A stretch of 20,000 bases of DNA, taken from the IMG/VR virus record IMGVR_UViG_3300035214_000047; one strand, written 5' to 3'. A program made the translations under genes and the position numbers. How positions within the stretch are numbered: position 1 is the stretch's first letter; every line of letters starts with the position of its first letter. The notes beneath the pieces were generated by a model that saw nothing but the letters and a program-made list of their open reading frames with translations, was not told the DNA's origin and ran no database searches. Shown one piece after another: positions 1-20,000 of this stretch. The stretch comes from an uncultured virus (IMG/VR IMGVR_UViG_3300035214_000047) (taxonomy: Duplodnaviria; Heunggongvirae; Uroviricota; Caudoviricetes).

Positions 1-80
1 CTTGTATTTACAATAGCATTTGAACTTATATCTCTTTGTAAACTTTCAAACTTCAATACTTTAACCAAATTGTTTATCAT
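1..80 (-). CDS. Small hypothetical protein downstream of the VrlC-like gene (5' part only; runs off the window)
   Basis: ATG at 80, 4 nt after the VrlC-like stop. Reads MINNLVKVLKFESLQRDISSNAIVNT... with no stop to position 1. From memory it resembles the small 'KV...L.RD..S.AI.NT' protein that follows VrlC in marine T4-like phages. Confidence 0.65.
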   Translation of the reverse strand, partial: MINNLVKVLKFESLQRDISSNAIVNT

Positions 81-84
81 TTAA

Positions 85-3000
85 TTATATCGCAAGCGCA
101 ATTCCTCTCATATCTCGTACTATTGGTGGATAAGAACTATTGTTTCCTTTTAATACTATTTTAGTTTGGAATGCTGTAAATGTATTTACATTACTTGCTG
201 AATATTGATATTCTCTAAAGTCATCATCAGCTTCAGAAGCAGTAACCGTTTTGTCTGCTTCACCAGCAGTATTAAATGGTGTCCAGTTAATCTCATTTAT
301 ATTTCTAACTTCATCAGCACTTGTTGTTCTATAATAAACTTCTACTTTAGCACTTGTTCTTACTACTTGCGTCAATCTAATATCTAACGCTGTTGAGTTG
401 TTTGTTAACACTACAGGTTTTGTAATATATTTTGAAGCACTTGAAGAACCATTAGCTGCTGTTTCTGATTGAAACGAAGGTGTATTTCCTGAAGTTGGAT
501 TATTTAATCTGTTTGTAATACAAAAAACACTTCTTCTAGCTAAGTCAATAATTGGAGAAATTTTTGGATTTGTTGTTGACATCTCCATAATAACATAAAA
601 AGATTTTGCACCAGCCATACGAGTAGTTTCATTTGGTGTTGACATAACTGCTTGTGGTTGAGTAAAGTATATATCATCTGCCAAAGTAACCGATTGTCTA
701 TTAGCTTCACTAAGTAAACTATATGGTGTTTGTGTTCCGTGAATTGATTTTGATGTTGTTGTTCTTACAAATGGAACAATTGAAGTTCCAGGAACTGATA
801 GTGATTGTAGACCACCTAAATTCAATACATCAAATTGTCTATTTTCTGTAGCAGTAACCGCTGTACCTCCAACATCTCCTGATGAAGTTGCAGTTCCGCT
901 AGTTGTTACATCATAAGTGTCTAAAGTTACATTTGTTATAGCAGTATAATCACCATTAATATCTGTATGAGCAATACCATTGTGAGTACCATTTGGAACT
1001 CCTGCAATAGTAACACACGAATTTGTATCGTGTAAATTATGATTTTTATGATACACTCTAACTACACCAGAACTATTTGTTGTTCTAATTGGATTTTGTT
1101 TTAATGTTTTAGCACTTAAAGTTTTATTTGATAAGTGAACCGTTCCAGTAACAGCAGAAAACTCACATCTTTTCATTGTGAATTTAATATCTTCGTTATT
1201 CTCAGCAGTCCAAGTTGAACCATTTTGAGATTTAAACATAACACCAGCATATGGTTGTTTTGATATTGTTCTACTAGAACCTATATTTGTTTCGCCTAAT
1301 CTCGCAACATAAGTTTCATAATCATTTGAGTTAGACATAATAACAAAAGAATACTCTACTTGGTCTTGTATATAAACAGGACTAGGAAAAGTAAATGTTG
1401 TTTTTACTGAAGCGTCTGAACTTGTATTAACAGCAGAAGGAATTAAAGTAACTTCTCCAAATGGAAGTATTTTACTTCCAGGATAACCATTAACCGTATT
1501 TCTAATTTGTACGGTTACAGGAATATTTGCGTCTTTAGTAGAGAAATATAAATCTATAGAAGATAAACATACTCCACCCTTTTCATCTGTCATAAAAGTT
1601 TGTGATAATGGGTCAACCCATCCAACCGTTTGTACTACTTGTCTTGTACTTGTTCTAATAACCGATTGTTGGTCTGTTACCGTTGTGTTTACACCTCTAA
1701 ATTCTCTAGTTGAAACAATTGTATCTCTAACCGTATTCAATAGACCTCTAGCAATATATTCAGCATTAGCAGCTGTAGAAACAGCAGCAGCATCCATAGA
1801 GTTAGTACTTGATGAAGTTAATCTAAATGTTCTTTCACCTGTACGCCATCTTGGATTTGTATCAATTTTTGGATCAGGTATTGAGAAAACACCAGATACA
1901 GCACCATTAGCATCCGTAACTAAATTACCTCCAAGTGAACCACTTGTTGGAGTTACATAAGAAGTTATATCTACATTATCAAAGAAAGGATAAACTCTAG
2001 CATTTGGTTTTAATCTCGTTGCAACAAAAGCAACATCCCTGCTTCTAATAAATGGAACAAAAGCAACATCAATTACTCTATCTCCCATACTTGTTCTAAC
2101 CGTTTGAGGTACAGCAGTTGTTGTAATTCCTGTTCTACTTTGGTTAACTTGGTTGATAGAAGTAATGTTAACTCTTTGTCTAACTGCTCTACCGTGTCTC
2201 CAAGTACTACCTGTTCTTTGACTACCAATATCCATTATTGGACTTCCAGTCCAATTTGTTTGCCATTCGTTCCAAACCGTACCAAGTGCTATTTCATTTT
2301 GATTAGGAACTCTTCCTTCTCTTAACAATTGGTCCCAAGCACCAGTAGTAGAATTTACTACTAGTTCAGGTGTTCGTTGTGTTTCTCTCCATTCATCTGA
2401 ACTTGGAGTTAATTCTATTGTTCCCATCCAACTAAAAATTGCAAATGGATTAACATTAATCGCTTTAGAAGCGAAAGGTTGATTAATTAAATCTTTTTCT
2501 ACAAATGGTAATAATAAACAATCACCAATCTTTTGATAGTTAGCAGCCGTTCTATCAGCGTCAACTAAAGCTGTTCCGTCTTCATCTACTTCTTCCAACT
2601 CAACAGCGTCTTGGTTAAAATGAGGTCTTAATTCTCCTTTTGCATAATCAACTGAACATCTGTAATCGCTATTTGTAACCTCACCAATACCGTGACCTTT
2701 AAAATTATCTACTATAAATCCATTTTTAAATCTATCAAAGCCATCAGCGTCTTGTATTTGTAATGATTGAGCAGCAGTTTCTAATAAAGATAATTGAGTA
2801 TAATATTCAACTCTATCAACTTTCTTTTCAATAGAACCAATATCTCTCATTGTATATCTTCTATTATTAATTGTTTCAAAAATTACATCATCCGTTGTTA
2901 AGTTATAAGCAGGTAATGAAATTGTGTATAGGTGCATAGCATTATCAATTATATCAGGCGCTTGTGGTTTAACATCTGGAGCACCAGATAATACTTTAAA

Positions 3001-6000
3001 CTCACCATCTTTTGTTAAGAATAATTTATCTATTCTTCCTTTATAAAATTCGTGGTCTGAATTAACAGAAGTTCCAAATTTAACAATATCAATAGTTGAA
3101 GCACCTGTACCATCATAACTCCTATTTTGTGTACCAGCATTAATTGTAGTTGCGTCATCTACTCTAGGTCTGAAATCTAAACAATCTCTTAATCTATAAT
3201 CGTCACCAGTTGTATCAGAAGTATAAGTTGGAATTAATGTATAATCTATTTGTCCTGAATAACTATCTACACTAAAGAAATCTCCATTACCATGTGTAAA
3301 ATAATTAAATGTAATTAGTAATTGTCCAGTTGGATTTAAACTTCCATCAACTCTTTTTAATCTTCCAATATCATAGAAGTTATCTCTTTGACCATTGTCT
3401 AAAGAAAATCTATCTGTAATGTCTGTATCTCCAGAAACAGGTGTTGTTGAAAAGTCAGCAGCCATTTTAACAGAAGCAAGAGAGTAAATATCAGCTTTGC
3501 CTAAAGAGATAGTACTTGCTTCACAATCTGCTTGAGTTGTAATAGTTGAAGTCGCATTTGAAGTTAAAGTTTTTGTTTTTTCGTTTTGTGCTGTTTTACT
3601 TAAAGTTCCAATAATTTTTACTTTGTGTCCTTGATGATTAGCACCAAAATCTAAAGTTAAAGTACGACCAACAGGTGAACCAGATAACGCAAAACAAGCG
3701 TCACCTTCGTGTTGGTTTCCAGTTGTAGATAATTTATCTCCAACAACACCAGCAGAAGAAGAACCGCCTTTTGTCATTATGGTTACTGAATAATCTGCTT
3801 CTGATTGAGATATAAAAGTCTCTCCAGTATTTGCAGTAATAGTAATATCTCCTGTTGAAGTTAATGTTCCAACAAAAGATTTTCTAACCGTAAATGCAGT
3901 ATCACTTATACCTGAATTTACAATTGTCTTTAATGTTTTAATTGTACTATAAGGTAATTCAAAGATACCAATATTTTTATCAGCTTCTTGTAATTTTGTT
4001 CTTCGTCTAATTACAATTGAACTAGACACAGCAGTTCCACCAATAGCACTTCCTAGTGTTAATGCTGAAGAAGATATAATTTCTATAACTTCTCTTGTTG
4101 TAATTGTTCCACCTGTATCAGCAAATTGGATTGAATCTCCAACTTTTAATTCTGTATTAAATTTAGAATTGAAACCTACTACAGATTGTCCACCACCTGA
4201 TACTGAAATTGTTCCAGATAGTTGTACATTTTCTCCATACGCTGATGATAATTCTGTTTGAGCAGTATAAGTTGGACTTCCTGCCATTGTAATTTCTTTT
4301 ACATCACTAGAACCATAACTTGTAAATGCTTTGTTTTCAAATACATCTGTTTTAGTTGTTGCAGTATTAGAAGAAGTACCACCTGTAACCGTTTCATTAG
4401 GTAAAAAATCTCCTTGTACATTTGATACAACTACTTTAGAAGTTGCAATATTTCCACCTGTACCTGCGCCTGTGTGACCAGTTCCGTCAACAGCAGTTCC
4501 GCTTGAGTCATATAATGCAAATTCTCTTTTAGCAGTACCACCAATTACTTGTTTAACATAATAAACATTATCATTTAATTCTGTTTGTGTACTAACACTA
4601 GTAATTGTTATTGCGTCACCATTTTTAATATCTAAATCAGCAGCCATTGTTATAACAACAGGATCAGCAGCTGTAGATGAAGAGATTGTAGAAGTTGTAT
4701 TTGTAGATACACTTTCAACAACAGCAGTTGCACCAGAAGAAGAACCTGTTAAAGTTTCACCAGTTGTAAATGCTTGGCTAGTAGTAATACCTATATGACT
4801 AAACATTTCTATATCAAATAGATAATGTTTATAAATTTCACTTGTTGATGGACTTATATTTCCTGAACCTGATATTGCGGCTCCTGTACTTGCGTTATAT
4901 TCAAAACCTTTAGATTTGGCACGACCAATATCTAATATTAAATTTTCATTATTTGCAGTAATTGTTCCAGCAGCATAAGTTGGTGAAGAAAGTTTTAATT
5001 GTAATGCTTTAAAGGCTTCTGTTTCTCCTGTTATAAAATTTACATCTGGAGAACCATATACATTAGATACATTAACATAATTTCCAACATCAAATTTTGT
5101 AGGGAAACCACTTTCAGTTCCAAATGTTCTTGCCTTATCTATTGTAACAAATTCGGTTCCTACTTTTTCTATTTCGTATCCTTTAACATATGCTTTTCCT
5201 GGAGATAATCCTAATGCAAGTTTAGTTTCTAAACCACCATTTCCTGATGTATAAATTCCTCTATTATCTCCTGAACTTAAATGTTCTCTAACATCTAAAT
5301 CAAAAGTTCTTATAGTATAATCTCCACTTTCATCACTTGTTCTACGAGCAAGAGTATCTTCTAAAATAGCATATTCAGTACTTCTAACTATATTTTGTAA
5401 AGCACCACTACTTAATCTTAATAATTCTATAAAGTTTGTATCTGTAATTGCAGTTAAAGCAAGTTTACTAAGTGTTAATGCAATTTTAAATCTGTGAGCA
5501 CCTGGAGCATTTACATTTGAAGAACCTTGAGCATTATCTACAAGTGTACTATCGTTGTTAGGTGTTACAAAACTTTCTGTGATTGTTAAACCAATTCTAT
5601 ATGATGGTTCGTTTGTATATTTGTCTAATACTAAAGTTTGTTTATCAACATTAACAGCATACCCATTAATGTAATAAGTACCAGCAGCAACTGAAGCAGC
5701 TGAACCTGTATATGATTCTGTACATACAGCAGTTAGATTACCTAAACTTGCGTGTACTGCTACCATTGATTCACCAGCAACAAAGTCGTTTGTATTATTA
5801 CCTACACCAGTTTTATTATATTTAACATATAAAGTATTTGGGTCAGTTGAAGTTGCAATATCAACAGCAACAATCTTCGCTTCAACAGCAGAAGTTTGTC
5901 CTATTAAAGTAAGTCCAACAAAATCTGATAATGTACTTGTACCTGTAAATGAAGTTAACTTAACAGAATAGTATTGTAAGTCGTAAGTAATCTCACCAGG

Positions 6001-6192
6001 TATCATCTGAGCACCACTTTCAAATATGTGGTTACCCATTTTTTCAATCTGATTTTGTAAGATTGTCTGTGATTGTGTTAACTCTCTAGCCTGTACAGCA
6101 AAAGCTGGTCTGAATAATATTCTATGGAAGCTTTTACTTTCCGAGAAATCATCATAATAAGGCGAGAGATTAAAGTCAGTTGGACTTGGCAT
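85..6192 (-). CDS. Large virion structural protein, VrlC-like / DUF4815 family (baseplate/tail associated), 2035 aa
   Basis: N-terminus 'FNLSPYYDDF...FHRILFRP..AVQARELTQSQTILQNQI'. Also 'TLARRTSDESGDY', 'LSPGKAYVKGYEI', 'RRYTMRDIG.IEK...VEYYTQLSLLE', 'DRFKNGFIVDNF' and 'DPLSQTF', all typical of this family in marine T4-like phages. Lies downstream of gp8; AGGGA RBS. Confidence 0.85.
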   Translation of the reverse strand: MPSPTDFNLSPYYDDFSESKSFHRILFRPAFAVQARELTQSQTILQNQIEKMGNHIFESGAQMIPGEITYDLQYYSVKLTSFTGTSTLSDFVGLTLIGQTSAVEAKIVAVDIATSTDPNTLYVKYNKTGVGNNTNDFVAGESMVAVHASLGNLTAVCTESYTGSAASVAAGTYYINGYAVNVDKQTLVLDKYTNEPSYRIGLTITESFVTPNNDSTLVDNAQGSSNVNAPGAHRFKIALTLSKLALTAITDTNFIELLRLSSGALQNIVRSTEYAILEDTLARRTSDESGDYTIRTFDLDVREHLSSGDNRGIYTSGNGGLETKLALGLSPGKAYVKGYEIEKVGTEFVTIDKARTFGTESGFPTKFDVGNYVNVSNVYGSPDVNFITGETEAFKALQLKLSSPTYAAGTITANNENLILDIGRAKSKGFEYNASTGAAISGSGNISPSTSEIYKHYLFDIEMFSHIGITTSQAFTTGETLTGSSSGATAVVESVSTNTTSTISSSTAADPVVITMAADLDIKNGDAITITSVSTQTELNDNVYYVKQVIGGTAKREFALYDSSGTAVDGTGHTGAGTGGNIATSKVVVSNVQGDFLPNETVTGGTSSNTATTKTDVFENKAFTSYGSSDVKEITMAGSPTYTAQTELSSAYGENVQLSGTISVSGGGQSVVGFNSKFNTELKVGDSIQFADTGGTITTREVIEIISSSALTLGSAIGGTAVSSSIVIRRRTKLQEADKNIGIFELPYSTIKTLKTIVNSGISDTAFTVRKSFVGTLTSTGDITITANTGETFISQSEADYSVTIMTKGGSSSAGVVGDKLSTTGNQHEGDACFALSGSPVGRTLTLDFGANHQGHKVKIIGTLSKTAQNEKTKTLTSNATSTITTQADCEASTISLGKADIYSLASVKMAADFSTTPVSGDTDITDRFSLDNGQRDNFYDIGRLKRVDGSLNPTGQLLITFNYFTHGNGDFFSVDSYSGQIDYTLIPTYTSDTTGDDYRLRDCLDFRPRVDDATTINAGTQNRSYDGTGASTIDIVKFGTSVNSDHEFYKGRIDKLFLTKDGEFKVLSGAPDVKPQAPDIIDNAMHLYTISLPAYNLTTDDVIFETINNRRYTMRDIGSIEKKVDRVEYYTQLSLLETAAQSLQIQDADGFDRFKNGFIVDNFKGHGIGEVTNSDYRCSVDYAKGELRPHFNQDAVELEEVDEDGTALVDADRTAANYQKIGDCLLLPFVEKDLINQPFASKAINVNPFAIFSWMGTIELTPSSDEWRETQRTPELVVNSTTGAWDQLLREGRVPNQNEIALGTVWNEWQTNWTGSPIMDIGSQRTGSTWRHGRAVRQRVNITSINQVNQSRTGITTTAVPQTVRTSMGDRVIDVAFVPFIRSRDVAFVATRLKPNARVYPFFDNVDITSYVTPTSGSLGGNLVTDANGAVSGVFSIPDPKIDTNPRWRTGERTFRLTSSSTNSMDAAAVSTAANAEYIARGLLNTVRDTIVSTREFRGVNTTVTDQQSVIRTSTRQVVQTVGWVDPLSQTFMTDEKGGVCLSSIDLYFSTKDANIPVTVQIRNTVNGYPGSKILPFGEVTLIPSAVNTSSDASVKTTFTFPSPVYIQDQVEYSFVIMSNSNDYETYVARLGETNIGSSRTISKQPYAGVMFKSQNGSTWTAENNEDIKFTMKRCEFSAVTGTVHLSNKTLSAKTLKQNPIRTTNSSGVVRVYHKNHNLHDTNSCVTIAGVPNGTHNGIAHTDINGDYTAITNVTLDTYDVTTSGTATSSGDVGGTAVTATENRQFDVLNLGGLQSLSVPGTSIVPFVRTTTSKSIHGTQTPYSLLSEANRQSVTLADDIYFTQPQAVMSTPNETTRMAGAKSFYVIMEMSTTNPKISPIIDLARRSVFCITNRLNNPTSGNTPSFQSETAANGSSSASKYITKPVVLTNNSTALDIRLTQVVRTSAKVEVYYRTTSADEVRNINEINWTPFNTAGEADKTVTASEADDDFREYQYSASNVNTFTAFQTKIVLKGNNSSYPPIVRDMRGIALAI

Positions 6193-6204
6193 TCATTTCC
6201 CTCT

Positions 6205-7665
6205 TTAAAATTCTATGATTAACTTAACATTCTCCGTTTGGTCAACACTTCGGGTTACTGGCGCTCTGTTTTCAATGTACATTACATCGCCAGAGTCAGC
6301 GTCTATTTCGGAAGTAGAATAACCTGAAACTAAAGAAACATTGTTAACCGTTTCGGTTGTGCCTGTTGGTGTGCCTGTTGCAGTTGAAGTGCCTCCTGTT
6401 ACCACATTGGTACCAGAAAAAGCAGTCATATTTCCATTTGCGTCAACACCTTCATCATCATATCTTGTTTGTATATAATATAAAATTAAATTTGCAGTAT
6501 CCCATTGTACGACTTTACCAACAGCACCTGTATTTGTTTGTGTAATCTTTTCGTCAGCAACAAAAGTTCCTGCACCTGCGTCAAATCTAATTGCTTTAGT
6601 TCCTCTTAATGTTGTTGTACTAGCAGCCGAACCACCAGCTAAAGGGTCTCTAATTAAAGCAACTCTTCTAAAATCGTTTTGTGTAGCAAAGTCTCCAGAG
6701 TTAGCAGTTTCAGCACCTTCAAAAGAAGTATTAAGTATTATAAAGAAAGCACCTAATTCTTCAAATGGGTCAAAACCGTGTCCGCCTTTTGGTTCTGTAA
6801 TTACATCTAACTCAGCACCTATTAAATTTGTACCACCAGCGGCAACAATATCTGCCACTCTAACATATCCAAAAGAATAGTTAATTGGTGTTCCTGTAAC
6901 CACAACCGTAGTAACCGAACCTGAAGCAATAGTTACCGAACAAGTTCCTCCAGAACCATCTCCTCTAATTGCAATGCCTGTATGTGTTCCATCAGTACCA
7001 CCTGTACCAGCAGCCTTAATTTTAATAATTGATATGTCGCCATCTACAGCAGCATTTTGTACAGAAGAGTTTGTAGAAACTCCCATAAAATCTGTTGATA
7101 AGAAATTTGCTTGTGAACTTGCAGATAAAGTAAACATATATTTCCATTTATAACTATCTGCTGTTTCTAATATATTAACACTTTCTCCAGTTGGTTCAAC
7201 CGTTGACGCTGAGTTGTCATTATTGTCTAAACATTTATAGACTTTAAAATTTGTATTCAATACATAGAAGTTTGCGTCATATAAATTTGTTGCTCCTGAA
7301 TTTGCAGATTGAGTAGTAGTAGTACCTGTTATTCTATTACCATAATCGTTTCTGTAAATATCATAAGTTGTTCCTGTTGCCCAATTTATTCTAGGACAAG
7401 CAAAAGCAACATCTGAGCTTGTAATTTTTTTAGCAGCCAGTAAATCATCAAAAGTATCATATTCATCTTGTACTGAATCTGCTGGTGTTATAGGAGCTGA
7501 ATCAGTTCCTATGTTATCTGTCCTTCCATCTGCTCTAGTTTTTGTTCCAAACGCAGTTGGTTTTCCTATTCCTAGGTAATAGACATTTGGAGCTGCCTCA
7601 CCAAAAGATTCCTCAAATTGTTGAGCATTGTTTCGTCTAAATTTACTTGTTATAATTGCTGGCAT
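6205..7665 (-). CDS. gp8: Baseplate wedge subunit, T4 gp8-like
   Basis: 'MPAIITSKFR..NA..F', 'YYLGIGKP', 'PRINW..GTTYDIYR.DY', 'FYVLN..FKVYKCLDN', 'D.YKWKYMFT', 'PKGGHG.DP.EELGA' and C-terminal 'SGDVMYIENRAPVTRS.DQTENVKLIIEF'; baseplate synteny. Confidence 0.88.
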   Translation of the reverse strand: MPAIITSKFRRNNAQQFEESFGEAAPNVYYLGIGKPTAFGTKTRADGRTDNIGTDSAPITPADSVQDEYDTFDDLLAAKKITSSDVAFACPRINWATGTTYDIYRNDYGNRITGTTTTQSANSGATNLYDANFYVLNTNFKVYKCLDNNDNSASTVEPTGESVNILETADSYKWKYMFTLSASSQANFLSTDFMGVSTNSSVQNAAVDGDISIIKIKAAGTGGTDGTHTGIAIRGDGSGGTCSVTIASGSVTTVVVTGTPINYSFGYVRVADIVAAGGTNLIGAELDVITEPKGGHGFDPFEELGAFFIILNTSFEGAETANSGDFATQNDFRRVALIRDPLAGGSAASTTTLRGTKAIRFDAGAGTFVADEKITQTNTGAVGKVVQWDTANLILYYIQTRYDDEGVDANGNMTAFSGTNVVTGGTSTATGTPTGTTETVNNVSLVSGYSTSEIDADSGDVMYIENRAPVTRSVDQTENVKLIIEF

Positions 7666-7688
7666 TGTTTATTTCCTATTTCTAACAC

Positions 7689-7696
7689 TATTTATA
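7689..7696 (-). promoter_or_regulatory. T4-type late promoter TATAAATA (gp55 sigma) upstream of gp8
   Basis: + strand tatttata at 7689-7696 in the intergenic gap; TAGGA RBS follows on the - strand. Confidence 0.85.
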
Positions 7697-7706
7697 CATC
7701 TTTCCT

Positions 7707-9341
7707 TTAAGATAGATTTATTGTACTTCCCATTCCTGCATGACTTGGACATTGATAATATAAGGTTGATGGAGAACTCATTAGAGGACAGAAAGTTATT
7801 GTTCCACTACTCGTTGAATTACCATCTACACCAAAGTTATATGCACTTCCACCACTTGAATATCTAATTTCAAATACATTACCACCACTAGATACCGTAA
7901 AAGTATAAGTGTGACCTCTCTTTAAATAAAGTACAGGATCGTTTTGTGAACCACCACTATTATGAGTTGTAAATCCATCACCTGTAAAAGTAAAATCTGC
8001 TGTTCCGCTATTGCCCACATTAAAATTTGCAGCTACTTTTTGAGCTGGAACATAATCATTTGGTCTCCATATTCCAGTACCACTTACATTTTCATATACT
8101 AATACTTGTCCATATACTGGAGTAACCGTAGTAGTATCAACATCTGTTAGTATATCTACACTATCGTTTTCTGATAATAAGTTAATCCAACCAGAAGAAG
8201 TAGCAAAGTATGCTTTAGTTGTTGAAGTTGATACAGCAAAACCACCAGCATAAGTAGCCGCTGTTGGAAATGAAGCAGTATTTGTAAAATCAAATCTTGC
8301 TTTTCCACCTGAACCAGTTAAATCAAGTTTACCTGTTCCATTAATTGTAAATCCTGCTGAATCTAAATTACCAGCAAGAACTGGACTAGTATCATCACTT
8401 AACTCGGATGTTATTGATGTAGGTTTCCATTGTGAACTTCCACTATTCCAAGTAAGTACTTGGTTATTAGTAGGGGCAGCTGTAGTAGTATCAACATCTG
8501 CTAAAATATCAATTGATGATAATGAACTTGCGATTTGGTTCCAAGCTGAATTAGCAGCAAAGTAAGCTTTGTATGTTGATGTATCAACACCAAATGCACC
8601 TGCATAAGCAGACGCAGGTTGAAAACTTGCAAGAGCAGTAGCACCTTGAGCAATAAATGAACCTATTGTAGCACATCTAAATTTAATATTTCCTGTTGAT
8701 GTACCTGTTATATTTGGGTCATCATAAATTTTGTTTGAAAAAGTTTGTGCGGTTGTTAAATCGGCAACCGTGTCGTCTATTGCTATTGTAATATTGTCGT
8801 CTGATACGGTTGTTCCAATTCCTGTACCACCACCAAAGTTAAGTGCATTGCCTACCGTATATGTATCATCAGTACCAGTATCAGCAGAAAGAGTAATTGT
8901 ACTTCCTACTTGTTTCCAATACATTGCACTTGCGCCATCAGTTGCAAGTACATAACCTGTAGTTCCTGCTCCTGTTGGAAAAGTTAGTTCATCTAACTTA
9001 ACTACTCCTGTTCCGTGTGGAACAAATTCTATATTTTCGTTATTAGCAGAAATAATATTAAAAGCGTTTATATCTAAATCGCCACCAAGCTGTGGACTGG
9101 TATCTACAGATATATCTCCAGCAGCTGCTGAAGCAGTTGGTTGAAATCTACTATTACCTGTATCCCATTGTAAAATTTGGTTTGATGAAGCACCTGCTAC
9201 GACAATTTTTAAATCTGTACCATCTCCAAGAGCTGTATACAATTCAGTTGTATTGTCATTAATTTTATCTCCACCAGCACGAAGGTTATCACCTGTGCCA
9301 TCATTTGGAGAACTTCCTAAATTGATTGTCTGTTTTGCCAT
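7707..9341 (-). CDS. Baseplate/tail fibre connector-like structural protein (gp9/gp10-type N-terminus, internal repeats, C-terminal cupredoxin-like domain), 544 aa
   Basis: N-terminal 'MAKQTINLGSSPNDGTGDNLRAGGDKINDN..ELY' is the gp9/gp10/gp12-type attachment motif. Repeats of 'DTSP.L.G.LD' and 'DIL.DVDTTT..P...QVL'. C-terminus 'LYLKRGHTYTF...LYYQCPSHAGMG'. Confidence 0.75.
   Translation of the reverse strand: MAKQTINLGSSPNDGTGDNLRAGGDKINDNTTELYTALGDGTDLKIVVAGASSNQILQWDTGNSRFQPTASAAAGDISVDTSPQLGGDLDINAFNIISANNENIEFVPHGTGVVKLDELTFPTGAGTTGYVLATDGASAMYWKQVGSTITLSADTGTDDTYTVGNALNFGGGTGIGTTVSDDNITIAIDDTVADLTTAQTFSNKIYDDPNITGTSTGNIKFRCATIGSFIAQGATALASFQPASAYAGAFGVDTSTYKAYFAANSAWNQIASSLSSIDILADVDTTTAAPTNNQVLTWNSGSSQWKPTSITSELSDDTSPVLAGNLDSAGFTINGTGKLDLTGSGGKARFDFTNTASFPTAATYAGGFAVSTSTTKAYFATSSGWINLLSENDSVDILTDVDTTTVTPVYGQVLVYENVSGTGIWRPNDYVPAQKVAANFNVGNSGTADFTFTGDGFTTHNSGGSQNDPVLYLKRGHTYTFTVSSGGNVFEIRYSSGGSAYNFGVDGNSTSSGTITFCPLMSSPSTLYYQCPSHAGMGSTINLS
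8128..8500. repeat. Internal duplication in the 544-aa fibre gene (period 354 nt = 118 aa)
   Basis: Exact 19-mer gtagtagtatcaacatctg at 8128-8146 and 8482-8500. The protein blocks 'PASAYAGAFGVDTSTYKAYFAANSAWNQI...SIDILADVDTTTAAPTNNQVLTW' and 'PTAATYAGGFAVSTSTTKAYFATSSGWINL...SVDILTDVDTTTVTPVYGQVLVY' align. Confidence 0.85.
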
Positions 9342-9365
9342 ATTGTTTATTTCCTACTATCCTAA

Positions 9366-9373
9366 TATTTATA
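9366..9373 (-). promoter_or_regulatory. T4-type late promoter TATAAATA
   Basis: + strand tatttata at 9366-9373, in the gap between gp7 and the 544-aa gene. Confidence 0.85.
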
Positions 9374-9380
9374 CACCGTA

Positions 9381-11936
9381 TTATACGGTTGAGTCAAAAG
9401 TTGATATACCACTACTAAATTTTGTACTTGTATTACTGAATTTACCTTGAGGTATTAATACTTCAGCAGGTAATGTAATATATGTCTTTGCAATAGTAGT
9501 TAAATCCCCATATTCAACAGCTGTTCCATCAGCAATTGTATTCGTTCCTATTACTTTTAATTCAGCTACTCTTGCCCAATTCATAGCACTTAAATTCATC
9601 ATACCTTGGAATCGTGTATTAAATTCTTTTAATCTAGGACCAGCATATACAGACCCAAAATTTGTATGAACCGTTCTGAAATAATAGAAAGGTTTAAACT
9701 GAAAGCTAAATTGCATTGGAGATTGTGTTAAGGTAATATCTCTAGTTGTTGTAGAGAAAGGAGATTTAGAACCTTGTACAACATCACCAGCAACTCCAAA
9801 ATGAGGATTAGCTCTTAATGATGTACCATCAGTTGTTGTTCCTAATCTTCTACCAAATACACTTCCAAATAGTGTGTTCATTAATGAAATAAATGGACTT
9901 GTTGAAATTCCAGTAACTCTTCCAACAACAGGCATATTAATTTGTGCGTCTATTCTACTTTCAATATTAACTTGTCCTGTAAAGTAAAAACCAGCAGGGT
10001 GCATAGTCTTTTTAAATGCGTCTCGCCATTCATCAATAGTACGACCCACTTTAACAACATAAGAAAAGTCCTGATAGTATAAACTATCTTGTACCTTCAT
10101 TGTTGTTTCTGATAAGTGTCCGTCTTCTGAAATATATTTACCTTCACTTGTTGCTAATCCAACAACATCAATCGTTGCAGTACCTGGATCCGATTTACCC
10201 ATTAAACCAGTTGTACCTGAAGTACCACCAGTCAAAGTTTCATTTAAAGTAAATGCAGTAGCATTTCTATTTTTTAATCTTAATAATTTTCTATCATTAT
10301 CCCAACTTACTACAACACCAGTTGCACTAGAAGAAGAACCTGTAACCGTTTCAGTTGCAACATAACTTCCGTTTGATTGTAATACAACTATTGATTCTAT
10401 AAGTGAAACCGTTGGAGGTGTTGGTGCTGTTTCGTGTGAGCGACCACTTTCTACTATAGTAACTCCTAATAAATTTCCAATTCCATCTCCGTATGTAAGT
10501 AATTCAGCGTTAACACCATTTGTACTTGTAATAGTAGCTGTAGGTGTTGTTGTATAACCAGAACCACCACTAATTAATCTTATGTCTGTAATATCTCCTA
10601 GTCCAGTTTCTAAAGCAATTTTATTACCTGGGCTAATATCGTGTGTGCTTGTTGCAGTTTCATAAACAATATGTCCATCGGTTCCTGTTTCGTTACCAAT
10701 GGCACCATTAACAACAGCAATTTCAGCAACGGCACCACCACCATTTGTATTTGCATTACTAAAAACTATTGGGTCACCTATTTGATATTGTGTACCAGAA
10801 GCGTTTATATAAAAATCTGTTATTGGTCCACTTCCAATTTCTCCAACTTGACAAATAGAAGCTTGACCACCACCTACTAAACTAACATTGTCTCCAATTT
10901 TAAAATGTGAACCATTATTTGTAATTGTAAATGTTCCAGGAACACCTGTAACCGTTGCCTTAATATAAATGTCATCTGTATCTGTAGCAGTACCTCTAAT
11001 TGTTTCACCAACTTGAAAAGTTCCTACTATATTGTCTTCATTTAATAATAATTCTGATACAAGTTGGTCACCAATTTGGAATCTATTTAAGTTTTCTACA
11101 ACAGCAGTTGTATTAGAAGTTAAACCTGTAATTGTTCTTCCAACTAATTGTCCTGTATTACCAACACTATTAATTGTTCTTAAAACTTTATTAGAAGTAA
11201 ACTCTCCATCTGATACTCTTAACATTTGTTCTTTTGGATAAAAGATTTCGGAGTTTTCACCAAACAATAATCTAAAAAATAATTCGTGTCCTTTTGCAGT
11301 ACCTTTAGTACGATATAAAGTTTTAACTCTTTTAATTAATTCTCTTTTGTTAACACTATCGTGTAAGTCTTCTGGTATTGTGTTTAAAACTTCGTTTCTA
11401 AATTGAGATAAGAAATGTTGTATAACTTTATCAGGATCCCTAAAGTTTAACAAATCTTGTATATGTTTTACTGGATTAGGTCTATAAGTTCCTGCAACAC
11501 CTGACGCACCAGAAACTAATCCAACAATTGTTTCACCTTTTATAAAACTATCATTTGCATTTATGAATAATCTATTAGTTGCTAAGTCTTCTGCTAATAT
11601 AGCAGTTTCGGCATTAGAAGTTTGACCTTTTATTATTTCACCTTGCGTGAATTTTCCATAAGTAGAACTTTCTTGTAATATTTTATTACCAGCGTCTATT
11701 TGAGTTGCTTCTGAACCAAGTCTACTTGCGTCTAACAATAAATTGTTAGCTTGACCTGTTTCTGTTTCTAATAAAATACCTTCAGTAGATTCTGATTCAA
11801 TAATACCTAATTCAGCAGATTCCATAAAAGTGAAATATGCTTTTATAAATTCTACAAATTTAGGATGTTCTGATAGTACAAATTCAGGTACCTGACCTTG
11901 AATAAGACTGGTAATCTTTTTAGTAAACTTTGCCAT
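9381..11936 (-). CDS. gp7: Baseplate wedge initiator, T4 gp7-like, 851 aa
   Basis: 'ITSLIQGQVPEFVLSEHPKFVEFIKAYF.FME', 'LIKRVKTLYRTKGT.KGHELFFRLLFGE..EIFYPK..MLRVSDG' and 'YISEDGHLS...KVQDSLYYQDFSYVVK.....EWRD.FKK.MHPAGF'; directly follows gp6. Confidence 0.8.
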   Translation of the reverse strand: MAKFTKKITSLIQGQVPEFVLSEHPKFVEFIKAYFTFMESAELGIIESESTEGILLETETGQANNLLLDASRLGSEATQIDAGNKILQESSTYGKFTQGEIIKGQTSNAETAILAEDLATNRLFINANDSFIKGETIVGLVSGASGVAGTYRPNPVKHIQDLLNFRDPDKVIQHFLSQFRNEVLNTIPEDLHDSVNKRELIKRVKTLYRTKGTAKGHELFFRLLFGENSEIFYPKEQMLRVSDGEFTSNKVLRTINSVGNTGQLVGRTITGLTSNTTAVVENLNRFQIGDQLVSELLLNEDNIVGTFQVGETIRGTATDTDDIYIKATVTGVPGTFTITNNGSHFKIGDNVSLVGGGQASICQVGEIGSGPITDFYINASGTQYQIGDPIVFSNANTNGGGAVAEIAVVNGAIGNETGTDGHIVYETATSTHDISPGNKIALETGLGDITDIRLISGGSGYTTTPTATITSTNGVNAELLTYGDGIGNLLGVTIVESGRSHETAPTPPTVSLIESIVVLQSNGSYVATETVTGSSSSATGVVVSWDNDRKLLRLKNRNATAFTLNETLTGGTSGTTGLMGKSDPGTATIDVVGLATSEGKYISEDGHLSETTMKVQDSLYYQDFSYVVKVGRTIDEWRDAFKKTMHPAGFYFTGQVNIESRIDAQINMPVVGRVTGISTSPFISLMNTLFGSVFGRRLGTTTDGTSLRANPHFGVAGDVVQGSKSPFSTTTRDITLTQSPMQFSFQFKPFYYFRTVHTNFGSVYAGPRLKEFNTRFQGMMNLSAMNWARVAELKVIGTNTIADGTAVEYGDLTTIAKTYITLPAEVLIPQGKFSNTSTKFSSGISTFDSTV

Positions 11937-11939
11937 TGG

Positions 11940-13793
11940 TTAGTAAGCACTTGTTGTAGTATAGCCAACTCCAGCGTCTGAACTTCCTGCGACAAAAGTA
12001 TCTTTTTCAACCGTAATAATTGAATTAGCAATATCTAATTCTAAAATTTGGTCTCTAACTGGTACAATGTCTTTTGAAGCTGGTTGGACGGTTAATTCTA
12101 TAATAGTTGAAGCGCTCCCTCTTATATTTGAAATTGTTGTCACCTGTAATGAATTAATTGTTATAGCACCTGTCGTATAATCTATTGTACCTTGTGTTGA
12201 GTTTGAGTAAACTCTTGTTGCACCAGAAAGATAATATGTTCTTATAATTCCATTACCATCATCATCTAAAAAATGTTCACTAGTACTACCTTCTATTTTA
12301 AAACCTGTTGAACTTAAAATACCACCACCAACAGCATTATGTCCGCTATGTGGATTATATAATGCGTTTCTAAAATAAACATTATATTTTAATGAACTAT
12401 TTAAAGTAGGAGTTAAACTTTTTCTTATTTTTAAAGTTGTTATGTTTGATAAAATTGAACTATCAACATCATCAACTAATCTAGTAACTTTACTATGTCT
12501 GAATATACTATCAAATCTTTGTAGTGTGCTTGTATTGTAATTATTCAATGAAGCTATAATATTTGCTTTAATTGTTTCAGCAGTTTTAATAGTTGCTGAA
12601 GTATTATATTTTGCAGTTGTAGATAATAGAATACTTGTTGTTTCTGGATCCACAATTACTGGAGTTACCGAAGCAACATTATATTCTTTTAATTTAGAAA
12701 CAATATCTGCTTTTGTTTGAGTAGTTAAAGTAGAACCACTAGCAGCTTTAATTGCAATTTTAACAATACCATAAACTGGTGTCTCATCATCTTCACCACC
12801 CCAAGCACTTACAACTAAAGCGTTTGGATATATAGATAAAACTTTTGTTTCGTAATCAGAAGTAGTTACCGCTCTATCTTGTGCTTGATATTGTAAAGGA
12901 GCATTAAATCTAATACTCTCTTTCAATTCTGGTTCACTACCACCTTGCGATACCGAAGAAGTTGTAACCGTAATGTTTGAAAAGAGTCCAATATTACCTG
13001 CAGGTGTAAATATATTTGCACCATTTGATTCTGCTTTGTTAGTAACAATATATTCCATTATAACAATGTTACCTTGCTTTAATTTTTTACCAAGTAAACC
13101 ATCACCAAAAGTTAAACAAAACTTACCTGTTTCTGTTTCACTTAAAAAGTAAATTGCAGATTCATCATTTAGTTTTGTTAAACCTGTAACCGCACTAAAG
13201 ATTTCAGAAGATGTATCTGATAAACTTGTTTGAACTTTTATTTTTAAAGTTGTTACATCAGCGTTTGTACTAGGTATATAAAATTTTTGGTCTGGGTCTT
13301 GCGTATCTACCGTATATCTAAAAGTAATTGGTGTACCTTCATATAAAGTTGTATTAGAAAATTTAAATACGCCGTCAATAGGTGTAATTGTTAAATCTTC
13401 ATTGGTAACATAATTGTAAGCAGTACCATCTACAGAAGTTGTAAATGTTTGTCCTTTGTTCATTGTTAAAGTTGTTCCTGTTGCGTCATTAACAACAATG
13501 TCAACTGAAGCAGTTGCTGCTTTTGCTGACGAAGGAGTATAACCTAACATTTTAGCAAGTGAAACTATATTTGCTCTTACATCAGCGGAGTCCAAATACA
13601 TTTCATTTGCTAGCATATTTGCATTGAAACCAAGGTAGTGTGTATTGTAAGCAAGTAGGTCTAAAAGAACAGCAAACCCAGAACCTTCAAAATTGTAATC
13701 TGAAAATTCTGCTTGACCTTGTAAAAATGTTTTTAGATTTAGTTTTATTAAATCAAAGTCTAATTCTGAAATATCTAGTTTTGTACTTGCCAT
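11940..13793 (-). CDS. gp6: Baseplate wedge subunit, T4 gp6-like
   Basis: 'LDFDLIKLNLKTFLQGQAEFSDYNFEGSG..VLLDLLAYNTHY..FNANMLANE.YLDSA..R..IVSLAK.LGYTP', 'ESIRFNAP..YQAQDRAVT..DY' and 'WGGE' are hallmark gp6 motifs. Confidence 0.93.
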   Translation of the reverse strand: MASTKLDISELDFDLIKLNLKTFLQGQAEFSDYNFEGSGFAVLLDLLAYNTHYLGFNANMLANEMYLDSADVRANIVSLAKMLGYTPSSAKAATASVDIVVNDATGTTLTMNKGQTFTTSVDGTAYNYVTNEDLTITPIDGVFKFSNTTLYEGTPITFRYTVDTQDPDQKFYIPSTNADVTTLKIKVQTSLSDTSSEIFSAVTGLTKLNDESAIYFLSETETGKFCLTFGDGLLGKKLKQGNIVIMEYIVTNKAESNGANIFTPAGNIGLFSNITVTTSSVSQGGSEPELKESIRFNAPLQYQAQDRAVTTSDYETKVLSIYPNALVVSAWGGEDDETPVYGIVKIAIKAASGSTLTTQTKADIVSKLKEYNVASVTPVIVDPETTSILLSTTAKYNTSATIKTAETIKANIIASLNNYNTSTLQRFDSIFRHSKVTRLVDDVDSSILSNITTLKIRKSLTPTLNSSLKYNVYFRNALYNPHSGHNAVGGGILSSTGFKIEGSTSEHFLDDDGNGIIRTYYLSGATRVYSNSTQGTIDYTTGAITINSLQVTTISNIRGSASTIIELTVQPASKDIVPVRDQILELDIANSIITVEKDTFVAGSSDAGVGYTTTSAY

Positions 13794-14037: not shown

Positions 14038-14463
14038 TTATCTTAACCTTTGTAAAAATGTTTCTACTACTATTGGTGTTTGTATGCCTACAACATAAAA
14101 ACTAATTTGTAAGTGATACCTGTTACTATCAATGTCTGGAGTTGCAATAACATTTACTATTTTTGCTCTAGGTTCAAAGTTTACTAAAACTTCTATTACT
14201 TTTCGTTCCAGATTTAATGCAGTAAGAGGTGTCATATTTTCAAATAACAATGCTCTTACATCACTCCCTATTTCGGGATGAAATGCTCTCTCATAATGAT
14301 TTGTTTGTATTAAATTCTTTACACTTCGTTTTACAGCGTCTACATCACTCAATCCAACAACATCTGAAGTAACTGGGTTTCGTGTGAAGTCCAAGTCTAA
14401 ATCAGAATATATCCGATTAACTCTTTTCTTATTAGTTGAATTTTTTGAATCGTAAAATGCCAT
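14038..14463 (-). CDS. gp25: Baseplate wedge subunit, T4 gp25-like (GPW/gp25 family)
   Basis: 'YSDLDLDF..NPVT.DV....DVDAVKRSVKNLIQTNHYER.FHPEIGS.VR.LLFE...EPRA'. Confidence 0.93.
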   Translation of the reverse strand: MAFYDSKNSTNKKRVNRIYSDLDLDFTRNPVTSDVVGLSDVDAVKRSVKNLIQTNHYERAFHPEIGSDVRALLFENMTPLTALNLERKVIEVLVNFEPRAKIVNVIATPDIDSNRYHLQISFYVVGIQTPIVVETFLQRLR

Positions 14464-17911: not shown

Positions 17912-17917
17912 AATGTT

Positions 17918-17946
17918 ATTCTATCACTTTCTTATTCTTTTGTCAA
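17918..17946 (-). promoter_or_regulatory. Sigma70-type promoter TTGACA-17-TAGAAT with extended -10 TG, driving a leaderless oxygenase mRNA
   Basis: The - strand reads TTGACA aaagaataagaaagtga TAGAAT aacatt ATG. The -35 is at 17946-17941, the -10 at 17923-17918 and the ATG at 17911. Confidence 0.85.
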
Positions 17947-18189
17947 TATGCCAATGTCAGTTATTGTTTCTTGTAAAAATTTATTCTTTTCGTTTAATAT
18001 CTTATTCTCTATTTCCATTACTTCAACTTTTTTAGTTAAGTCTGATAATCCTCTATCATCATCTAATACCATTTGTAATTGTGTCTTTAACAATTCCATT
18101 TGATACTTATAATCTTTCTCTAAAGGTAGATTACTTGCAGGTTCATATGAGACTGAATCATCATTCCATAGTTTCATTGTTTCACTCAT
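17932..18189 (-). CDS. Hypothetical coiled-coil protein (likely start MSETMKLW at 18189)
   Basis: Heptad-like C-terminus 'LTKKVEVMEIENKILNEKNKFLQ'. The ATG at 18189 lies 1 nt after the iscA stop and avoids the 23-nt overlap of the 18213 start. Confidence 0.65.
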   Translation of the reverse strand: MSETMKLWNDDSVSYEPASNLPLEKDYKYQMELLKTQLQMVLDDDRGLSDLTKKVEVMEIENKILNEKNKFLQETITDIGILTKE

Positions 18190-18190
18190 C

Positions 18191-18517
18191 TTATACTCCA
18201 AAACTTTCTCCACATCCGCATTCTGATTTTGCGTTAGGGTTAATTAATTGTAGAAACGAACCAAAGATTTCTTTCTTATATTCTATAGTCATTCCTGCTA
18301 ACATTAATATACTTGATTTGTCTACTAACAATGTAAAGTTTTCATATTGCATTTCTTCATCATTGTCATCTTTATTATCTTCAAAGGACCAATCATATTT
18401 AAAACCAGCACAACCACCACCTTTAACTTCAAGTCTAACATATTTCTTATTATGTTCTTTACTCAACTCGGTCAAGTGTGTGTTCGCTGTTTCTGTTATC
18501 GTTATTAAACTACTCAT
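18191..18517 (-). CDS. iscA: A-type Fe-S cluster carrier (IscA/SufA/HesB family)
   Basis: 'ITITETA...VRLEVKGGGCAGFKY', 'LLVDKSS...LAGMTIEY......GS.L...NPNAKSECGCGESF' with all three Cys ligands. The start at 18517 gives an ATGA overlap with the upstream ORF (the track start is 18529). Confidence 0.93.
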   Translation of the reverse strand: MSSLITITETANTHLTELSKEHNKKYVRLEVKGGGCAGFKYDWSFEDNKDDNDEEMQYENFTLLVDKSSILMLAGMTIEYKKEIFGSFLQLINPNAKSECGCGESFGV

Positions 18518-18696
18518 ATGCTGTCCCAAATTCCTTCTAATCCTTTTAGTTTTTCTATCTCTAATAATTCTTGTAATGTATTTACTATTCCATATAACTC
18601 ATATATGTCAGTTTGTAAAGTCCAAATTGTATAAGACATAAACAATAACACAACTAATATTAATAGTAAAGTCAAGTCTTCAAGTTTCTTCTTCAT
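18514..18696 (-). CDS. Small membrane-anchored protein (60 aa; TM plus coiled coil)
   Basis: MKKK, a hydrophobic LTLLLILVVLLFMSYTIW segment and an amphipathic helix; sits immediately after a late promoter. Confidence 0.65.
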   Translation of the reverse strand: MKKKLEDLTLLLILVVLLFMSYTIWTLQTDIYELYGIVNTLQELLEIEKLKGLEGIWDSI

Positions 18697-18701
18697 AATA
18701 T

Positions 18702-18709
18702 TATTTATA
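18702..18709 (-). promoter_or_regulatory. T4-type late promoter TATAAATA, 5 nt upstream of the ATG at 18696
   Basis: + strand tatttata at 18702-18709 in the 19-nt gap after nadA. Confidence 0.75.
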
Positions 18710-18715
18710 TCCTTC

Positions 18716-19669
18716 TTATATACCGTATACCATTCTCTCTATTGGGCGCTTTGCTCTTTTCATTATATGGTATGGTATTTTAACCTCATAGGTATTTAAC
18801 ATTAACGATTGTAATATTCCTGCTAGAGTAATTCTTTTCATATGTGGACACAAATTACAAGGTCTAACAAATTCTACATTTGGATTCTCTATTGAAACAT
18901 TATCACTCATTGAACACTCCGTAACCATTAGTACTTTACTAGGTTGTTTATCTTTAACATAGTTACTCATTTTAGATGTTGAACCTGTAAAGTCTACTTC
19001 AGCAATTACATCTGGTGGACATTCTGGATGTGCTAATATAGTAATACCTGGATTATCATTTCTGTATTGTCTAATTTCTTCAGCAGTAAATTTTTCGTGT
19101 ACCATACAAGTACCATGCCAAGATATAATTTTAACCTTTGTTTGTTTAGCTATATTTTTTGCAAGGTATTCATCTGGGAGAAAGATAACTTTATCAACTC
19201 CTAATGATTCAACTATTTCTACAGCGTTGCCTGATGTACAACAAATATCTGTTTCTGCTTTAACATCAGCAGAAGTATTTACATAGGTGACTACTGGTAC
19301 ACCTGGATACTTTTGTTTTAATAAACGAACATCTTTACCTGTAATAGATTCTGATAATGAACAACCTGCTCTTGCGTCTGGTATTAAAACTTTTTTCTCG
19401 GGACTCATCAACTTAGCAGTTTCAGCCATAAAGTAAACACCACACATTATAATAGTATCTGCTGTTGTGTTCGCTGCTTCTTTTGCTAGTAATAAAGAAT
19501 CACCAACTATATCAGCAACACAATGATATATTTCTGGTGTCATATAATTGTGTGCTAGTATTACAGCATTCTTTTCTTTTTTTAATCTATTGATACTTGT
19601 AATGTAAGGTTCAAAAAATGGCCATTCTATTTCGGGTATCACTTTCGCTACCTTTTCATATTGACTCAT
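18716..19669 (-). CDS. nadA: Quinolinate synthase A ([4Fe-4S] enzyme of de novo NAD biosynthesis)
   Basis: '[11 protein letters not shown]', 'GDSL.LA', '[11 protein letters not shown]', 'AGCSL' (Cys1), '[10 protein letters not shown]', 'CTSGNA', 'PDEYLA', 'CMVHEKF' (Cys2), 'AHPEC', 'GSTS.M' and '[14 protein letters not shown]' (Cys3). Full length, 317 aa. Confidence 0.97.
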
Positions 19670-19681
19670 CTTCTTTTACCT

Positions 19682-19762
19682 TTATTTTCTACTCATCATA
19701 TCATATGTCATCCAAATGAAAAAACATATTACATATGCAATTAATAATATTTCTGTTATCAT
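19682..19762 (-). CDS. Micro-membrane protein, 26 aa (MITEILLIAYVICFFIWMTYDMMSRK)
   Basis: ATGA overlap with the upstream ORF; single TM segment; ends 12 nt before nadA. Confidence 0.55.
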   Translation of the reverse strand: MITEILLIAYVICFFIWMTYDMMSRK

Positions 19763-19899
19763 TGTTGTATTATAAGATGTCCTTTACTCCACGCTAGAAG
19801 AACAGCAACAGCTGCCAAAAATAACATAAAGCCTACTACTGCTAATCCTTCTTTCAGTAGCTTTTTATTTCCGTTTTTAAATTCGTTATTTTTAATCAT
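19759..19899 (-). CDS. Small membrane protein, 46 aa (MIKNNEFKNGNKKLLKEGLAVVGFMLFLAAVAVLLAWSKGHLIIQQ)
   Basis: AGGA RBS, ATGA overlaps at both ends and a clear TM helix. Confidence 0.65.
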   Translation of the reverse strand: MIKNNEFKNGNKKLLKEGLAVVGFMLFLAAVAVLLAWSKGHLIIQQ

Positions 19900-19961
19900 A
19901 TGTTTCCTAATACAATTGCTAGTATAACAAATAGACCTAATAAGATATAGACACTTAACAT
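19896..19961 (-). CDS. Micro-membrane protein, 21 aa (MLSVYILLGLFVILAIVLGNI)
   Basis: TAATG overlap with an upstream ORF running off the window (...LFKKLYHYWWMS*), ATGA overlap downstream; fully hydrophobic. Confidence 0.5.
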   Translation of the reverse strand: MLSVYILLGLFVILAIVLGNI

Positions 19962-20000
19962 TAGGACATCCACCAATAATGATATAACTTCTTAAATAAA

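Follow-up and report, generated by a model that had tools for sequence, protein, structure and literature searches.

The avoidance of restriction sites in phage genomes is a classical phenomenon, and short-palindrome avoidance by phages was reportedly described by Sharp, by Gelfand and Koonin, by Rocha and by others. Five-base sites with a W (A or T) or S (C or G) centre include CCWGG, GCWGC, GGWCC and CASTG, asymmetric five-base sites occur in type IIS and type III systems, and ACNGT, with any base at the centre, is the site of HpyCH4III, Tsp4CI and TaaI. The word ACWGT (ACAGT or ACTGT) resembles the W-centred sites or the asymmetric type IIS and type III words, and we know of no enzyme, W-centred or asymmetric, that recognizes it. 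Here we describe the complete absence of ACWGT from a stretch of 20,000 nucleotides of an uncultured virus (IMG/VR record IMGVR_UViG_3300035214_000047; hereafter the window) and from the clade of phages to which it belongs. By sequence comparison, the source is an uncultured T4-like relative of the pelagimyophages whose host is not established. With the enzymes of the ACNGT group the avoided word shares the outer AC and GT around one central base; unlike them, the clade discriminates against a W centre alone.

This absence is like classical restriction-site avoidance in that a short symmetric site lies far below expectation, is removed synonymously and is accompanied by the avoidance of other sites of 4–6 bases. 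It is unlike the classical cases in that the purge is complete, with 0 sites where several hundred are expected, and clade-wide, that ACWGT has no characterized enzyme known to us or found in the literature, and that the genomes of the presumed hosts, SAR11 bacteria, are stated in two sources to almost lack restriction(-modification) systems (PMC7029224, PMC9516812). The nearest published case in phages of SAR11 is the depletion of GANTC in some pelagipodophage clades, as given by Seong et al. (2022; PMC9516812); in both cases the loss of a motif follows SAR11-phage phylogeny and no matching host nuclease is known. The motif and the phage family differ, however, and GANTC (GAWTC) is the hosts' own CcrM-type methylation site, depleted in the host genomes too (0.40–0.52 of expectation), whereas ACWGT is not depleted in them. 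A search of about 8.4 million papers and preprints for ACWGT as a whole word, alone or with “methyltransferase”, gave no match (REBASE was outside this search), and as a substring the word occurred, among the matches listed, only inside primers. No paper was thus found that uses ACWGT as a motif, in line with the statement of the initial annotation that it could be matched to no well-known enzyme; the phenomenon is known, and the motif appears to be new.

Exact counting over the 20,000 bases gave ACAGT 0 and ACTGT 0, the complete absence that the initial annotation had noticed by eye. The number expected is 39.6 from base composition, close to the “few dozen” it had anticipated, 32.5 from a maximal-order Markov model and 37.1 ± 3.3 from a synonymous codon shuffle, in which the minimum over 500 shuffles was 30. 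The shuffle covered 20 open reading frames (ORFs) taken as genes (18,978 coding bases), a set of the authors' choosing and not a validated gene call, and none of the 35 motifs compared deviated more strongly than ACWGT (z = −11.3). The window contains 193 CAGT or CTGT tetramers (80 and 113, where well over 100 had been estimated), none of which is preceded by A, and 40 ACSGT sites (34 ACCGT and 6 ACGGT; the estimate had been 35–40), which include all nine positions singled out by eye, the one given as 246 being really 245. The gap is real and lies far beyond chance.

The gap is specific to the W centre. In the coding sequence of the window, ACSGT is enriched (39 observed vs 16.1 ± 3.7 expected from the codon shuffle), and its density in the clade, 2.47 per kb, compares with 1.22 per kb in the cultured pelagimyophages Mosig and HTVC008M; selectivity for W and not N, as originally proposed, is therefore borne out. 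An enzyme of the ACNGT type (HpyCH4III, Tsp4CI) is ruled out because ACSGT is doubled rather than depleted, and a spaced AC...GT half-site rule is ruled out because ACWWGT, ACSSGT and ACWWWGT occur at normal frequency in the clade. ACAGT is the reverse complement of ACTGT, so that a single five-base site in double-stranded DNA is targeted; the data fit a W-centred palindrome as well as an asymmetric word avoided in both orientations, and cannot tell the two apart.

The way in which the sites are removed depends on the reading frame. Among the threonine (Thr) codons of the window, ACA (350) and ACT (262) make up 90%, and ACG (43) and ACC (24) are the minority, but before valine (Val) the usage is reversed, with 27 ACG, 5 ACC and neither ACA nor ACT in 32 Thr-Val pairs, so that 27 of the 43 ACG codons precede Val. 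The proposed recoding of Thr-Val as ACG-GTN accordingly describes 27 of the 32 pairs and has to be widened to include the five with ACC; because most genes lie on the minus strand, a coding ACG-GTN appears on the plus strand as ACCGT. The same usage is found in three longer contigs of the clade, described below, where ACG or ACC accounts for 66/66 (G001), 114/114 (G002) and 118/118 (G003) Thr-Val pairs and ACA or ACT for none; in Mosig ACG/ACC is used in 39 of 221 pairs and ACA/ACT in 182, and in HTVC008M the corresponding numbers are 18 and 206 of 224. The preference for ACG over ACC before Val (2.3–5 to 1 in the clade) is about what transitions from the ACA:ACT ratios before Val in these relatives predict (114:68 in Mosig, 144:62 in HTVC008M). 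In the other two frames, NAC-AGT/TGT and A-CAG/CTG-T are both absent from the clade (Mosig, 31 and 27; HTVC008M, 68 and 58). The altered base varies by frame and the change is silent every time (in Thr-Val, W becomes S; in NAC-WGT, C becomes T), and ACWGT is missing in every frame, on both strands and in non-coding DNA too. A change that is frame-dependent and always silent points to selection against the word itself rather than to a hot spot of mutation or to erroneous base calling, and a deaminase-type bias, which would always alter one fixed base of the motif, does not describe a pattern in which the altered base is the central W for frame 0 and the C for frame 1. With the codon-shuffle result, these changes uphold the proposal that selection, and not composition or mutation bias, removes the motif. 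A lower frequency of the dipeptide itself, with 23 and 22 Thr-Val pairs in four orthologous proteins of the clade, 44 in Mosig and 31 in HTVC008M, weakly suggests avoidance at the amino-acid level as well, which we do not claim.

The gap extends to a single clade. G001, an IMG/VR contig, is the same phage, since its bases 1–11994 match window bases 1–11994 at 99.94%, and adds 31.8 kb; it contains 0 ACWGT where the Markov model expects 76. G002 (119.9 kb; CheckV completeness, 82%) and G003 (109.6 kb) contain 0 vs 170 and 0 vs 147, which brings the three contigs together (273 kb) to 0 vs 393 (Markov) or 550 (composition). A wider sample consisted of the best 80 of 601 IMG/VR loci that encode a relative of the gp6-like baseplate protein of the window. 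In 23 of the 80, ACWGT occurs twice in 249,628 bases vs 390 (Markov) or 508 (composition) expected; in the remaining 57 it occurs 1493 times vs 1443 expected. Both exceptions lie within the first 650 bases of one locus, L007. That segment (L007:1–650) holds 2 ACWGT, 1 ACGT, 2 CATG and 1 GATC, has a GC fraction of 0.27 and matches no relative, and the other 18 kb of the locus are without ACWGT, ACGT and CATG; it is either a chimeric end of the assembly or DNA inserted recently, and the two sites are not real exceptions.

In a gp6 tree of 81 rows, from which the partial sequences L030 and L037 were dropped, the ACWGT-free rows (22 of 81) form one clade on a long stem (SH-aLRT, the Shimodaira–Hasegawa-like approximate likelihood ratio test, 100). 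One change on the tree accounts for the ACWGT-free state, compared with an average of ~19 when the labels are shuffled, and gp6 identity within the clade falls as low as 78%. Judged from this tree, the loss appears to have had one origin and to have been maintained afterwards. A double-stranded ACAGT/ACTGT site is thus under continuous selection throughout one phage clade.

The other phages examined carry the word at ordinary frequency: 259 vs 265 expected in Mosig, 361 vs 352 in HTVC008M, 167 vs 168 in the OM43 phage Melnitz (50 kb of 141.5 kb), 60 vs 73 in HTVC010P, 92 vs 118 in HTVC011P and 109 vs 118 in HTVC019P. The initial annotation had suggested running the same test on related pelagimyophages; the cultured ones, Mosig and HTVC008M, are at expectation, and among the phages examined the gap is confined to one uncultured clade. 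As both come from strain HTCC1062, this strain does not impose the pressure. No ACWGT-poor locus was found among 240 IMG/VR loci of three podophage types (2.22 Mb). Outside the clade, the word is therefore missing from 0/240 pelagipodophage-type loci and 0/6 cultured relatives, whose host overlap with the clade is not established.

Nearly all large ORFs of the window are on the minus strand, where they make up a T4-like baseplate module with a VrlC-like virion protein of 2035 amino acids (aa), gp8-, gp6- and gp25-like wedge proteins and a PAAR protein, followed by small genes and then by genes for NifU-like, 2OG-Fe(II) oxygenase (2OG, 2-oxoglutarate), IscA-like and NadA proteins. Many of the recoded Thr-Val pairs lie in the VrlC-like gene. 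The features are as follows.

1..20000, no strand: ACWGT-free stretch, also with 0 ACGT, 0 TCGA, 0 CCGG, 0 CASTG, 3 CATG, 8 GATC and 2 GCATC/GATGC
85..6192, minus strand: VrlC-like giant virion protein, 2035 aa, Thr/Val-rich (phrog_358)
6205..7665, minus strand: baseplate wedge subunit (phrog_438, E 4.5e-136)
7707..9341, minus strand: baseplate wedge / tail-fibre connector-like protein (phrog_677)
9381..11936, minus strand: large virion structural protein (phrog_3465 and others)
11940..13793, minus strand: gp6-like baseplate wedge (baseplate J) protein (phrog_219, E 1.1e-179), the marker for relatives and the tree
14038..14463, minus strand: gp25-like baseplate wedge subunit (phrog_261)
18716..19669, minus strand: quinolinate synthase NadA, an auxiliary metabolic gene, 68–69% identical to NadA of five SAR11 genomes

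A megablast comparison of the window with 50,697 phage records matched Pelagibacter phage Mosig alone (72% identity over 24% of the window). It is also the nearest named relative by gp6 protein identity (64%; HTVC008M, 53.6%; Melnitz, 51.6%). The window is not HTVC008M, whose record differs (gp6 identity, 53.6%).

ACWGT is one of about ten short sites avoided in the window, the others having been missed by the initial annotation. In the window coding sequence, observed and expected numbers are 0/33 for ACGT, 0/20 for TCGA, 3/25 for CATG, 8/41 for GATC, 2/29 for GCATC/GATGC, 0/12 for CASTG and 44/98 for AGCT. Genome-wide, the clade has 0 ACGT vs 234–262 expected, also avoids CATG, GATC, TCGA, GCATC and CASTG, is without CGCG and nearly without TCAAGA/TCTTGA. 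ACGT, CATG, GATC, TCGA, GCATC, CASTG and CGCG are typical restriction sites. Avoidance of ACWGT and ACGT is constant within the clade, and that of CATG, TCGA and CCGG varies among its members. CATG is left 0 times in G003, 11 times in G001 and 3 times in the window; G002 keeps 100, none of which is RCATGY (R, purine; Y, pyrimidine), an NspI-like pattern. The difference between G002 (L087–L092), on the one hand, and G003, G001 and the window, on the other, would reflect nested specificities within the clade.

The surviving GATC sites all lie within GGATC/GATCC (window 8/8, G001 20/20, G002 33/33, G003 28/28, HTVC008M 83/83), so HGATCD (H, not G; D, not C) is purged and GGATC tolerated; in Mosig 19/19 are GGATCC, and in the SAR11 genomes 313 of 865 GATC sites are of the GGATC/GATCC type. 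The pattern hints either at a nuclease that is sensitive to the flanking bases or at protection by a GGATC-specific modification. TCAAGA/TCTTGA occurs 0 times in the window and in G001, 2 vs 65 times in G002, 1 vs 54 in G003 and 0 vs 84 in HTVC008M, and 101 times in Mosig; TCWWGA overall stands at 0.011 per kb in the clade. Each pelagiphage examined strongly avoids motifs of its own, as does Melnitz, even though a single strain was the isolation host of most of them. HTVC011P avoids GATC (0 vs 86), CCWGG (0 vs 28), GANTC, TCGA, GCWGC and CATCC; HTVC010P avoids CTNAG and GTSAC, with CTAAG at 0 vs 40; HTVC019P has GCGC at 0 vs 34 and GGCC at 0 vs 23; Mosig avoids CAGGG, CATCG, TCTAGA and AGTACT; and Melnitz has GGAACC at 0 vs 34 (50 kb). 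The tetramers CTTA/TAAG, AACC/GGTT and ATTC/GAAT are low in phages and SAR11 genomes alike, and their scarcity is a shared compositional bias rather than phage-specific avoidance.

Two samples of SAR11 genomes were counted, one of five genomes found with a 16S probe (60–100 kb each) and one of 20 genomes that bear a C5 DNA methyltransferase (20 kb each). In the five genomes the ratio of observed to expected was 0.90–1.10 for ACWGT, 0.85–0.92 for ACGT, 0.78–0.94 for CATG, 0.87–1.02 for GATC and 0.40–0.52 for GAWTC, and the low GAWTC value agrees with the GAWTC methylation of SAR11 published in PMC8919816. In the 20 methyltransferase-bearing genomes, 13–33 ACWGT sites were observed vs 17–32 expected. 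The density of the word in SAR11 genomes is ~1.1–1.4 per kb (115 and 137 sites in 100 kb). Depletion in host genomes with no matching methyltransferase or nuclease, which the initial annotation had named as one observation that would refute its reading, is accordingly not what these 25 genomes show; nor was a cognate enzyme found. The SAR11 host that it presumed is itself not established, the window not being a cultured pelagiphage and its nearest named relative, Mosig, being 64% identical in gp6.

A C5 DNA methyltransferase is present in 71 of 401 sampled SAR11-family genomes, in several of them as tandem pairs. Examples are the following.

L490:9719–10468, C5 methyltransferase
L500:18828–19835, C5 methyltransferase
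L501:11208–12215, C5 methyltransferase
L502:8393–9358, C5 methyltransferase
L505:8516–9082, C5 methyltransferase
L219:9725–10735, C5 methyltransferase
L224:10167–11201, C5 methyltransferase

A named type II nuclease family lies beside the methyltransferase in 5 of the 20 neighbourhoods examined (RE_Eco47II in one, RE_NgoFVII in two, BsuBI/PstI in one and RE_Bsp6I in one), HNH nucleases in 4/20, a Z1/AIPR/DUF4420 set in 5/20, with one neighbourhood having both, and EVE-domain proteins in 2/20. Gene pairs of the restriction type are thus present in the SAR11 family, at odds with the published near-absence, and none of them can be tied to ACWGT.

A phage-encoded cause was sought in G002. By Pfam, no DNA methyltransferase, restriction-enzyme, HNH or GIY-YIG family was found in the 122 of its 142 ORFs that were scanned, and a Dam-family methyltransferase gave 0 matches in four phage records. 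The nucleases found are those common to T4-like relatives: RNase H, a PD-(D/E)XK protein, a gp4-like TnsA fold, gp46/47 and denV. In a second ORF call with a shortest ORF of 60 aa, 52 of 151 ORFs had no match in HTVC008M or Mosig, and the 27 of these that are conserved in G003 belong mostly to a radical-SAM/cupin/2OG cluster or encode fibre-like proteins. PHROGs comparison of 18 ORFs, 17 of them from the 27, gave one denV-like match and nothing else nuclease-like. The cluster lies at G002 66025–76408 (L090:6025–16408), is kept in G003 and G001, and is located downstream of the VrlC-like gene, just past window coordinate 1. It comprises four radical-SAM genes, a cupin gene, a 2OG-Fe(II) oxygenase gene and several genes for proteins without known family, and has no tblastn match in HTVC008M or Mosig.

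What acts on the site is, on balance, probably a nuclease or another motif-reading defence of the host that meets unmodified phage DNA. Purifying selection keeps the clade free of double-stranded ACAGT/ACTGT, and each site that would arise is eliminated by the change that leaves the protein unaltered in the frame concerned: Thr-Val is spelled ACG- or ACC-GTN, NAC-AGT and NAC-TGT are spelled with NAT-, and CAG and CTG between A and T are swapped for other glutamine or leucine codons. A sequence-specific nuclease of the natural hosts, either a restriction enzyme or another defence that reads the motif, would cut or flag ACWGT and spare ACSGT, and the list of avoided sites would be a lineage-specific record of the nucleases that the clade has faced. 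The findings have the features of restriction-site avoidance, since the word is under-represented against a null that preserves protein and codon usage, is lost synonymously on both strands and in all frames, forms a self-complementary set of five-base words and co-occurs with other avoided sites. A host nuclease is the best fit because the list of restriction-type sites differs between lineages and within the clade, and because restriction gene pairs are seen in the presumed host group and no such enzyme is seen in the phage; we infer a nuclease encoded by the host and, as that host, a bacterium of the SAR11 type. Of the original proposal, that a host restriction or defence specificity for ACWGT is being selected against, the selection on the motif stands, and the host enzyme as its agent is not shown.

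Several observations weigh against a host nuclease. No cognate enzyme or methyltransferase was found, specificity not being readable from sequence; the host of the clade is not established; many phage ORFs are without known family; and five cultured phages of HTCC1062 carry ACWGT freely. None of the 25 sampled SAR11 genomes (20–100 kb each) is depleted of the word (0.65–1.18 of expectation), and an unrelated group of phages, represented by the 240 contigs of pelagipodophage type (2.2 Mb), shows no convergent loss and hence gives no pointer to a shared host factor. A DpnII-family GATC nuclease is found in 0 of the 401 SAR11-family genomes, which leaves, for at least one avoided site, a strong phage gap without an obvious host enzyme. 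The single origin on the tree, finally, is fitted equally well by a cause intrinsic to the phage.

Such a cause could be an ACWGT nuclease of the phage itself, serving the breakdown of host DNA for nucleotides or the exclusion of rival phages, with its own genome kept site-free instead of methylated. The trait has a single origin and does not vary within the one phage clade that shows it, host genomes with ~1.1–1.4 ACWGT per kb would be good substrates, the scans of the phage gave no DNA methyltransferase, and the 52 unmatched ORFs of G002, like the many without known family, leave room for such a gene. The explanation is nevertheless unlikely, given that the scanned ORFs hold no restriction-enzyme, HNH or GIY-YIG family and only nucleases conserved in all T4-like relatives, that the clade-specific conserved genes are mostly those of the radical-SAM/cupin/2OG cluster and of fibre-like proteins, and that about ten sites are avoided in sets that differ between close relatives, so that many nucleases would be required. 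The EVE domain is regarded as a reader of modified bases, and the site might instead be methylated by an enzyme of the host or of the previous host, the methylated phage DNA becoming the target of a modification-dependent nuclease once it enters the next one. The frequency of C5 methyltransferases in the SAR11 family (71/401), the EVE-domain proteins that adjoin them in 2/20 neighbourhoods and the one cytosine that ACWGT has per strand are compatible with this, but the 20 methyltransferase-bearing genomes lack the loss of ACWGT that methylcytosine deamination would tend to cause, and two components are needed where one suffices; we regard it as improbable. Very improbable indeed are causes other than defence, namely context-specific mutation bias, for instance at a deaminase hot spot, effects on codon pairs or translation, a signal in the RNA, sequencing artefacts, or the leftover of a past host without present selection. 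Nothing specific favours them beyond the somewhat fewer Thr-Val dipeptides in the four orthologous clade proteins, which allow for some protein-level effect. A hot spot or base-calling artefact would hit one fixed base, whereas the changes are frame-dependent and always silent, which rules out mutation bias and sequencing artefact; both strands, every frame and the non-coding DNA alike are without the motif, as are contigs of many independent assemblies; and, without selection, mutation would restore sites toward the ~2 per kb of the relatives in a clade whose gp6 has diverged to 78%.

If a host nuclease is the agent, it must be so widespread and persistent that several hundred expected sites stay at zero in spite of deep divergence. 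Few biological entities in the ocean are as abundant as SAR11 bacteria and their phages, and an absolute five-base purge together with about nine other avoided sites would place the phages of this clade under strong sequence-specific attack on their DNA. We suggest tentatively, and with more doubt than conviction, that an undescribed nuclease or other motif-reading defence occurs almost universally, and has long persisted, among the hosts of this abundant uncultured pelagimyophage clade, that each pelagiphage lineage bears a distinct “avoidance barcode” of about ten motifs, and that SAR11 has a large unrecognized repertoire of DNA-targeting defences. Were this true, uncultured phages could be assigned to host subpopulations by means of the barcodes. 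The sets of motifs avoided by each lineage could indicate, without cultivation, which phage infects which host. ACAGT/ACTGT is a concrete specificity to seek in host methylomes and enzyme screens, and the C5 methyltransferases in 71 of the 401 SAR11-family genomes, some beside restriction-nuclease families, bear on the same question.

The NadA gene of the window has IscA-like and NifU-like genes nearby. For seven avoided motifs counted together, the phage copy of the gene contains 1 site and the five host copies 8 to 13. At least 120 metagenome homologues of NadA lie within an E-value cut of 1e-20 (8000 scored), and most of them are ~88–92% identical.

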